The position numbers and the translations under genes were made by a program. This document shows, piece by piece, positions 2-670 of a stretch of 670 nt of DNA (positions are counted from its first letter, which is position 1; each line of letters begins with the position of its first letter). The notes under the pieces are model-generated. The model saw only the letters and a program-made list of their open reading frames with translations, was not told where the DNA came from and searched no databases. Origin of the DNA: Escherichia coli (GTDB lineage Bacteria; Pseudomonadota; Gammaproteobacteria; Enterobacterales; Enterobacteriaceae); assembly GCF_003334385.1 (NCBI RefSeq), contig NZ_QOWN01000154.1; one strand, given 5' to 3'.

Positions 2-295
2 TACTCGAGGGAATTAGCCGATGCGAGAGCTGAAAATGAAACTCTGCGCGCTGACGTTGCCGCTGGTCGTAAGCGCCTGCGGGTCAACGCCACCTGCCCC
101 GGTACCGTGCGTGAAGCCACCGGCACCTCCGGCGTGGATAATGCAACCGGCCCCCGACTGGCAGACACCGCTGAACGGGATTATTTCACTCTCAGAGAGC
201 GGTTGATGCTGATGCAGAAGCAGCTGGAAGGGGCGCAGGAATATATCCGCACTCAGTGCACTAAGCTGGCTTTTTATTATCCGGAGGATATATGA
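2..295 (+). CDS. Rz: Rz i-spanin (inner-membrane spanin subunit), C-terminal portion; 5' end lies upstream of the window
   Basis: Frame 2 is open from position 2 to TGA at 293-295. My translation is YSRELADARAENETLRADVAAGRKRLRVNATCPGTVREATGTSGVDNATGPRLADTAERDYFTLRERLMLMQKQLEGAQEYIRTQCTKLAFYYPEDI. From memory this aligns closely with the C-terminal half of lambda Rz (...KELADAKAENDALRDDVAAGRRRLHIKAVCQSVREATTASGVDNAASPRLADTAERDYFTLRERLITMQKQLEGTQKYINEQCR), including both periplasmic Cys positions. The track ORF 107..295 is only the internal-Met part of this frame. Confidence 0.9.
   Translation, partial: YSRELADARAENETLRADVAAGRKRLRVNATCPGTVREATGTSGVDNATGPRLADTAERDYFTLRERLMLMQKQLEGAQEYIRTQCTKLAFYYPEDI
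7..11 (+). promoter_or_regulatory. Shine-Dalgarno-like GAGGG for Rz1, located inside the Rz coding sequence
   Basis: GAGGG lies 9 nt upstream of ATG at 21. This spacing fits translation initiation of the embedded gene. Confidence 0.5.
21..206 (+). CDS. Rz1: Rz1 o-spanin, outer-membrane lipoprotein, embedded in the +1 frame of Rz
   Basis: Track ORF MRELKMKLCALTLPLVVSACGSTPPAPVPCVKPPAPPAWIMQPAPDWQTPLNGIISLSESG (61 aa). From memory it resembles lambda Rz1 (MLKLKMMLCVMMLPLVVVGCTSKQSVSQCVKPPPPPAWIMQPPPDWQTPLNGIISPSERG). It has a hydrophobic signal peptide, a lipobox V-S-A-C with Cys at codon 20 (nt 78-80), Gly at +2 (no inner-membrane retention Asp), and a proline-rich mature part with a conserved internal Cys (PVPC). 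A GAGGG Shine-Dalgarno at 7-11 lies 9 nt upstream of ATG 21. The true start could instead be ATG 36 (MKLCAL...). Confidence 0.86.
   Translation: MRELKMKLCALTLPLVVSACGSTPPAPVPCVKPPAPPAWIMQPAPDWQTPLNGIISLSESG
274..282. repeat. Left copy of an exact 9-bp direct repeat TTATTATCC
   Basis: An identical 9-mer recurs at 523-531. This copy lies immediately 5' of the SD of the small ORF, within the 3' tail of Rz. Confidence 0.35.
283..288 (+). promoter_or_regulatory. Shine-Dalgarno GGAGGA for the downstream small ORF, inside the last codons of Rz
   Basis: GGAGGA at 283-288 is followed by ATG at 292, a short 3-4 nt spacing. ATG 292-294 overlaps the Rz stop TGA 293-295 (ATGA), a typical translational-coupling arrangement. 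Confidence 0.5.
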
Positions 296-516
296 AGAAA
301 TTACGGGTAACCGTAGAACCTTTTCAGGGAACAATTCCGTTCCGTATTTTGCAGCGTGGTCGTGTTCTTGTTGAAGGTTCGTTCAGTGGTAAATGTACGC
401 AATTACACTCCCGGACCTTTCAGGTGAATGCCACGAATGAAGAGCTAACCGTTGAGTGTACGATGAATGCCGCTAAATGCCGCATGGTATCCGCTGCATT
501 ACAGCCAGTGTGTTGA
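292..516 (+). CDS. Hypothetical small protein (74 aa), no family recognised; candidate moron or accessory gene downstream of the lysis cassette
   Basis: Track ORF MKKLRVTVEPFQGTIPFRILQRGRVLVEGSFSGKCTQLHSRTFQVNATNEELTVECTMNAAKCRMVSAALQPVC, ATG to TGA, with SD GGAGGA upstream and ATGA overlap with Rz. By my manual counts GC is about 45-48% in 301-480, against roughly 68-70% in 61-180 and about 60% in 541-600. It has no signal peptide or hydrophobic segment, and four Cys that do not form a CxxC motif. Alternating hydrophobic and polar residues near the N-terminus suggest beta strands. Confidence 0.5.
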   Translation: MKKLRVTVEPFQGTIPFRILQRGRVLVEGSFSGKCTQLHSRTFQVNATNEELTVECTMNAAKCRMVSAALQPVC

Positions 517-522
517 GCGACC

Positions 523-531
523 TTATTATCC
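523..531. repeat. Right copy of an exact 9-bp direct repeat TTATTATCC
   Basis: Identical to 274-282. It starts 7 nt after the TGA stop of the small ORF at 514-516. Confidence 0.35.
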
Positions 532-642
532 ATGCGCGGTATTGTCGCCGTATTCCTGCATTAACAGAGACCGCAGCCCGACCGGGAGACTCCTCTGCGC
601 GAGTGTGCGGGGATAATCAAAAACGATACACACCGGGGTTTA

Positions 643-661
643 CCGCGTTAACGGAGCGCGG
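643..661. other. Short inverted repeat (CCGCG-N9-CGCGG) containing the palindrome CGTTAACG; possible weak hairpin
   Basis: CCGCG at 643-647 pairs with CGCGG at 657-661, and the loop contains the palindromic octamer CGTTAACG at 646-653. No U-run follows (GCGTTGTCCC), so it is not a convincing intrinsic terminator. Confidence 0.2.
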
Positions 662-670
662 CGTTGTCCC

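Follow-up and report, generated by a model that had tools for sequence, protein, structure and literature searches.

A 670-base stretch of Escherichia coli DNA (contig NZ_QOWN01000154.1; hereafter the window) carries a small gene, here called A, directly behind the 3' part of the lambdoid lysis gene Rz. Its open reading frame (ORF) runs on the + strand from an ATG at 292 to a TGA at 516 and encodes 74 amino acids (aa); the gene (292..516) appears in the ORF list, in RefSeq, as a member of PHROG 2571 by hidden Markov model (HMM) and in alignments with its relatives. Comparison with these relatives shows A to be a genuine protein-coding gene, and the window copy to be the solo derivative of a cassette in which A is followed by a second small gene, B, and a terminator, B having been lost. 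The same comparisons support the view that A is an accessory (cargo) gene which a lambdoid E. coli prophage acquired in the slot between Rz and terminase. The reading that we somewhat favour is that of a conserved, late-transcribed accessory binding protein which likely serves in phage-host or phage-phage conflict.

A conserved coding frame behind Rz

The length of the ORF is no evidence for a gene, because chance ORFs of 61-106 aa occur in other frames of the same 670 bases. The evidence comes from the relatives. Fifty of them were found among 5.8 billion proteins searched, all from Escherichia or Salmonella where an organism is named, and in the E. coli and Salmonella relatives A always lies immediately after Rz. 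Full-length homologues with 61-96 % identity retain about 74 aa, and their internal gaps are solely in-frame insertions or deletions (indels); an alignment of 19 sequences contains 21 invariant residues and in-frame indels of 15 nucleotides (nt). Among 86 copies, i.e., those in the loci collected at that stage, 16 distinct DNA alleles were found, several of which give an identical protein. When A is compared with a Salmonella copy and with a divergent E. coli copy, the ratio of non-synonymous to synonymous divergence (dN/dS) is 0.32-0.42 in frame and 1.2-1.75 in the two shifted frames. The family reaches further: among 1.84 billion cluster representatives, a profile search recovered stand-alone members of 70-81 aa with identities of about 25-35 %.

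The possibility that the ORF is due to chance and lies in a conserved spacer, non-coding or RNA-encoding, could appeal to its shortness, to the other chance ORFs in the window and to the fact that its expression is judged from position. It is effectively refuted by the frame-specific purifying selection, the in-frame 15-nt indels, and the distant homologues with their high-confidence predicted fold. An RNA element in place of a gene was also considered and rejected: there is no Rfam match, and folding is not unusually stable, with z scores of +0.25 for positions 505-670 and -0.48 for a hairpin at the junction with Rz.

The sequence of A and two close variants each occur on at least about 1000 contigs, and A was found in 1181 of 5426 complete E. 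coli genomes (about 22 %), with up to six copies per genome. The first-pass annotation, made from the DNA letters, had described a complete ORF with a Shine-Dalgarno sequence and a four-base ATGA overlap with the Rz stop, a lower GC content than either flank, and a product with neither signal peptide nor recognisable motif. All of this is present in the window; the GC content is 0.467 in A against 0.574 in positions 1-291 and 0.578 in 517-670. The frame also proved to be conserved, and the protein widespread yet uncharacterised. The label "unassigned" has to be dropped, since the NCBI pipeline already annotates the protein (WP_000736383.1), as a "hypothetical protein" here and in every other source, and since it belongs to PHROG 2571. 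The match to the PHROG 2571 HMM (E 2.7e-28, 100 bits) places residues 1-73 of A on profile positions 100-172 of 291. With an existing annotation and a place in a phage family that is catalogued though uncharacterised, A is thus ordinary prophage cargo.

The mobile A-B cassette and its solo form

The accessory nature of A is seen most directly in phage 1720a-02, whose Rz ends …RTQCLN* and meets the sequence found at about position 527 of the window. Both flanks align base for base, and about 18 bases stand in place of window positions 260-527, which delimits a segment (260..527, + strand, by pairwise alignment with 1720a-02) that some related phages have and others lack. Several phages, YYZ-2008-like records among them, match the query in two pieces that cover 59 % of it; these are matches only, and the aligned case is that of 1720a-02. 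The synteny comparison proposed at the outset has therefore found the Rz-to-downstream junction both with and without A and, because A-less alleles exist at the same junction, A is dispensable for this type of phage.

A also has a history of its own. Between the window and the O157:H7 copy the synonymous divergence (dS) is 0.33 in Rz and 0.05 in A, whereas between the window and an Stx2c phage it is 0.11 in Rz and 0.40 in A; from this discordance it follows that recombination moves A independently of Rz. The gene travels with two unrelated packaging modules, Nu1/GpA and HNH-TerS-TerL, and its relatives turn up repeatedly in accessory slots of other temperate phages. The suggestion of an acquired accessory gene is thus sustained by the A-less junction, by divergence uncoupled from Rz, by the low GC content and by the relatives in accessory slots.

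In phage lambda, the bor gene lies on the opposite strand, has its own expression signals, and is expressed from the prophage as an exported lipoprotein. Cargo of the bor type shares with A the slot between lysis and packaging genes, an optional presence in close relatives, an odd base composition and mosaicism. Unlike bor, A points in the same direction as the late operon, and neither a promoter nor a terminator of its own could be found; its product is a predicted soluble protein without signal peptide; the two share no sequence similarity at all. A moron in the strict sense is an addition to a phage genome that is transcribed independently (PMC3594210). In complete A-B cassettes there is a strong intrinsic terminator, but it lies after B, not after A. 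The proposal that A is a moron stands as far as presence/absence and distinct GC content are concerned, but fails in the strict sense for want of its own promoter and its own terminator.

The cassette is best seen in Salmonella, where the stop codon of A is followed by 39 nt, a 68-aa gene B and a strong intrinsic terminator. B corresponds to PHROG 4280, a family of proteins of 68-73 aa with the motif DPDNxGWVLGW…PWHLVGVY…YGSHRLGSDDF. B is found behind A in phages of Salmonella and E. coli and in Citrobacter-like and metagenomic ones, including those with distant A relatives, and an intrinsic terminator was found after B where the sequence was read (loci L083 and L099). When viral contigs were scanned with a B profile, an A-family gene was located 36-80 nt upstream on the same strand in 55 of the 79 scoreable contigs, and these 55 hold 41 distinct A proteins. 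Of 666 pairwise comparisons, 98 % show A to be the less conserved of the two proteins, with a mean identity of 0.40 for A and 0.67 for B, and the pairwise identities of the two correlate (r = 0.78). In Pseudomonas and Vreelandella, B occurs as a solitary gene, on the opposite strand, within tail gene clusters.

The sites occupied by the cassette are varied. It is found after spanins of three non-homologous families or behind endolysins, after Q, before two kinds of terminase small subunit, and in tail clusters after phrog_791; in the last case it adjoins an inserted immI-like Arc/antirepressor block rather than core tail genes. In window-type loci no B was detected by tblastn, and the DNA that follows A in the window is the flank that is also found in A-less phages. 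Since an intact A-B cassette close to the type of locus L120 is present in 32 of 5426 E. coli genomes, compared with 1181 of 5426 for A-type genes, solo A predominates in this species.

Longer and more distant forms of the family were encountered as well. A 280-aa protein (P0063; loci L103 and L104, 4630-5843) matches the whole PHROG 2571 profile (E 2.9e-144) with the A domain in the centre, and lies after a DUF4406 gene between Rz and terminase in other enterobacterial prophages. Like A, this long form is a family member downstream of Rz and upstream of terminase; it differs by N- and C-terminal regions that are absent from A, and a Pfam search gave no domain in either protein. In locus L092 (4001-4649), the Q antiterminator and the holin enclose a distant A relative of 72 aa that starts with GTG, and the next gene after this relative, in place of B, is GrlR-like (PF16518). 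The Q-to-holin slot is the site of the stx genes in Stx phages.

The arrangement of A and Rz in the window has a simple origin. The start codon of A shares four bases, ATGA, with the TGA of Rz (293-295). In O157:H7 and Salmonella, Rz ends at a TAG, which is followed by a conserved 24-nt spacer with a Shine-Dalgarno sequence and then by the ATG of A. In an alignment of six junctions, the codon at the position of this ancestral TAG is CTG in the window and in JJ1886, CCG in CB9615 and CAG in the Stx2c phage. Loss of the stop extends Rz through the old spacer by about 9-10 residues, until the TGA of ATGA ends it; Rz accordingly measures 155 aa in the O157 type, 153 aa in Salmonella and 164 aa after stop loss. 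The same junction alignment identifies in the window the read-through tail LAFYYPEDI (266..292, + strand), nine codons of former intergenic spacer. The junctions concerned lie at 266-295 in the window, at 2470-2500 in locus L095 and at 3970-4000 in locus L083. The Shine-Dalgarno sequence of A, GGAGG (283..287, + strand, 4 nt before the ATG), was recognised from the sequence and the junction alignment; it is kept in all junction types, relatives showing GGAGA or GGGGGA at that place.

Because it came from the loss of the Rz stop codon, the overlap is secondary. Among 86 scoreable loci, it is present in 49, while 34 have a separate Rz stop 24-28 nt upstream and 3 are without a long upstream ORF; the overlap is therefore no conserved regulatory design. 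Coupled ATGA pairs in phage late operons resemble A and Rz in the 4-nt overlap and in a Shine-Dalgarno sequence inside the upstream gene, and differ in that the overlap of A is a recent by-product of stop loss. Translational coupling of A to Rz, as first proposed, thus has the ATGA overlap of the window in its favour and may operate in the window lineage, but it does not extend to the family, in which the overlap arose by stop loss and concerns only 49 of 86 loci. A hairpin at 271-299 (UUUUUAUUAUCC-GGA-GGAUAUAUGAAGAAA) would mask the start codon of A together with some bases of its Shine-Dalgarno sequence; it is not unusually stable (z -0.48) and is only partly conserved in the O157 type. Ribosomes translating the extended Rz would unfold it.

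In a different arrangement, that of locus L085 (3559-4397) from one E. coli prophage type, A lies 440 nt downstream of Rz behind the relic of another Rz 3' end, and B, now without its first 15 codons, directly adjoins the stop codon of A. This looks like a recombination scar with a decaying B.

The A-B cassette, the stop-loss origin of the Rz overlap and the presence/absence allele are new, and the A-B pair is a modest but concrete lead.

Expression and possible function of A

A scan with a simple sigma-70 consensus, which a weak or non-canonical promoter could escape, found no promoter-like site on the + strand upstream of A and a single one some 285 nt past its stop codon; beyond 516, no sequence makes a convincing terminator. 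Since A in the window has neither promoter nor terminator of its own, it is probably transcribed only within the late transcript, that is, the Q-antiterminated transcript from pR'. Translation would start from its own GGAGG, and ribosomes that end Rz at the overlapping TGA may re-initiate on A.

The A protein has a mass of 8.3 kDa and a pI of 9.5. An AlphaFold2 model built on the family alignment is a seven-stranded β-sandwich (predicted local distance difference test, pLDDT, 89.6; predicted template modelling score, pTM, 0.75). The maximal Kyte-Doolittle hydropathy over 15 residues is 0.80, which leaves no room for a signal peptide or a membrane helix, and the N-terminus has no lipobox with a Cys. 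A is thus predicted to be a small, soluble protein without catalytic signature. The hallmarks of exported cargo (signal peptide, lipoprotein signal, outer-membrane β-barrel) are missing from it, as are those of lysis proteins (membrane helix, signal peptide or lipobox, muralytic domain).

Database searches with A returned no Pfam match, even at E<=10, and none in NCBIfam; the PADLOC defence-system models matched neither A nor B at E<=1. A sequence-profile search of the PDB produced one insignificant match (E 0.85), and a Foldseek comparison of the A model with AFDB50 recovered only uncharacterised members of its own family. For B, Pfam, NCBIfam and PADLOC yielded only a weak match to DUF7457. 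Literature searches by RefSeq, UniProt and GenBank identifiers and by PHROG numbers found no paper that names A or its family, and a general search gave nothing of use beyond the moron review (PMC3594210).

Three further clues were followed and rejected. The name of one AlphaFold DB neighbour suggested PilZ, which is ruled out by the profile, by the spacing of the motifs RxxxR and (D/N)xSxxG (about 20-30 residues in PilZ) and by conservation. The extra regions of longer relatives match only PHROGs of unknown function. Charge complementarity between A and B is inconsistent: paired A proteins have an average net charge of -2 and B proteins of -3, and only the solo A of E. coli is basic.

An accessory role in lysis would account for the position of A against Rz, and the first-pass annotation had listed modulation of lysis among its options. 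A would then tune the function of spanin, endolysin or holin, or the timing of lysis, in keeping with its constant place directly after Rz in E. coli and Salmonella, with the many A-B cassettes behind spanins or endolysins and with its overlap with the Rz stop in the window lineage. However, the upstream spanins are non-homologous (phrog_214, 2536, 312, PF03245), and a specific spanin partner for A is therefore unlikely. Moreover, the A family is also found away from lysis genes, in tail clusters and between Q and holin; phages with the same Rz but without A exist; spanins act in the envelope while A has no signal for membrane or periplasmic targeting; and the overlap itself is a secondary stop loss. 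This role is consequently disfavoured, and we consider it improbable.

Some cassettes lie inside tail gene clusters, and A of the window type would be expressed together with the late genes, as might be expected of an accessory of the virion or of its assembly, for instance a β-sandwich decoration protein, a chaperone or a tail-associated module. Nevertheless, A is optional among phages that share a morphogenesis module, the packaging and head genes that accompany it are of two unrelated kinds (Nu1/GpA and HNH/TerS/TerL), and the copies in tail clusters sit beside the immI-like Arc/antirepressor insert and not among core tail genes. A virion or assembly role is thus quite unlikely.

A role in conflict, which we prefer, starts from the predicted structure. 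A small, presumably cytoplasmic β-sandwich without catalytic signature most likely works by stoichiometric binding of another macromolecule, and a fast-evolving surface paired with a slowly evolving partner likewise speaks most simply for a binding protein. The original partner of A would be B, or a target that it shares with B, and solo A would bind a component of the host or of a rival phage. The repeated placement of the family in accessory slots of temperate phages suggests a conflict role, in which A would act as a factor of counter-defence or exclusion between phage and host or between phages, rather than as a lysis or assembly protein.

A more specific proposal, to which we give only tentative credence, is that A and B form a mobile two-protein conflict module of gammaproteobacterial temperate phages, either a counter-defence pair or an exclusion system. 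B would interact with a cellular or viral component that is conserved like B itself, while the rapidly diversifying A would provide specificity or regulation; solo A, present in about 22 % of E. coli genomes, would have come to inhibit, on its own, a target in the host or in a rival phage. In anti-CRISPR/Aca operons, a small inhibitor gene that varies precedes a small partner gene that is conserved. These operons resemble the A-B cassette in the fast first gene, in a partner conserved across genera, in mobility and in the occurrence of the partner alone; they differ in that no DNA-binding signature is seen in B and that the cassette belongs to the late genes; the likeness is therefore an analogy only.

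Several observations weigh against the favoured reading of A as a conserved, late-expressed conflict protein. Its late transcription and its translation are inferred from position, and the promoter scan has the limit given above. The searches by sequence and structure brought to light no functional homologue, motif or informative structural neighbour for A or B, and the proposed conflict role is therefore drawn only from the architecture of the cassette and its pattern of evolution; a fast A beside a slow B is also compatible with functions outside conflict. Shortened variants of A exist, with 71 aa in JJ1886 and 64 aa in other forms. Finally, in CB9615 (O55:H7; locus L087, 4001-4225) A differs from the window by 21 substitutions, about 18 non-synonymous and 3 synonymous (dN/dS about 2), next to an Rz with a dN/dS of 0.40. 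Positive selection was set aside for this copy, the 21 changes not being distinguishable from neutrality, and the non-synonymous excess might reflect relaxed constraint and not adaptive change.

The shortened or altered C-termini and the excess in CB9615 would also be expected if the A of the window were a decaying remnant, left over after the loss of B, useless and open only by inertia. The absence of B downstream of the window copy, the small number of genomes with an intact pair (32 against 1181) and the truncation of B itself in locus L085 point in the same direction. The behaviour of B-less copies argues otherwise. Between the A of the window and that of the Stx2c phage, two lineages that lack B and have the same downstream flank, dN/dS is 0.36 at a dS of 0.40, which indicates that solo A in E. 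coli has remained under purifying selection; inside the window-type cluster, too, the differences are mostly synonymous. Likewise, the 74-codon frame is intact in more than 1000 genomes and in several junction types, all of which keep the Shine-Dalgarno sequence. Decay is for these reasons an unlikely explanation.

Layout of the locus and significance

The window is 100 % identical to part of a lambdoid prophage in the chromosome of E. coli SW070917. RefSeq gives the gene order there as holin, a YdfR pseudogene, lysozyme, antirepressor, three tiny ORFs, a "lysis protein" (Rz) and the 74-aa hypothetical protein, followed by a TonB-like gene, YlcI/YnfO, an HNH endonuclease, the small and large terminase subunits and capsid.

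The 3' part of Rz occupies 2..295 on the + strand; it encodes an i-spanin (WP_077502137.1, PF03245 family) according to its translation, the RefSeq annotation of the identical locus and the Pfam Phage_lysis match of homologues. The gene is open at the left edge of the window, and its frame (…RTQCTKLAFYYPEDI*) terminates at the TGA at 293-295. Embedded in it, in the +1 frame, the ORF list contains an o-spanin ORF of the Rz1 type (21..206, + strand; MRELKMKLCALTLPLVVSAC…), with a lipoprotein-type signal and a proline-rich mature part (…MKLCALTLPLVVSAC…). The name Rz1 presumes that the lambda Rz/Rz1 architecture applies. The true start is likely the second or third ATG (36). This ORF is missing from the RefSeq annotation of the identical locus, and the same embedded ORF is found in locus L085 at 3314-3517.

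Downstream of A, a GC-rich non-coding flank (517..670, no strand assigned) is conserved and common to phages with and without A; in complete cassettes, this is the place that B would occupy. It is part of a GC-rich region of about 345 bases (window 517-670; locus L001, 6517-6860) which extends from A to the TonB-like gene, is highly conserved and has no annotated gene. The flank matches nothing in Rfam, contains no terminator-like site and is not unusual in its folding energy, and an Rfam search of 3.5 kb around the locus likewise returned zero matches. In E. coli strain G8 (NZ_CP060057.1, 2192987-2194432; H32), an IS1A insertion cuts the window sequence in two.

The carriers of A are Shiga-toxin-converting and other lambdoid prophages, in strains that include O157:H7, O103, O145, EPEC E2348/69 and ST131. 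Selection on its frame, its dispensability and its membership in a mobile cassette with a conserved partner turn A into a defined experimental target. If it should have no role in conflict, it would be ordinary prophage cargo and a clear example of a translational overlap born from the loss of a stop codon. Small optional genes of phage late operons have repeatedly turned out to be counter-defence or exclusion factors, and the A-B pair is a reasonable candidate for screens directed at such functions.

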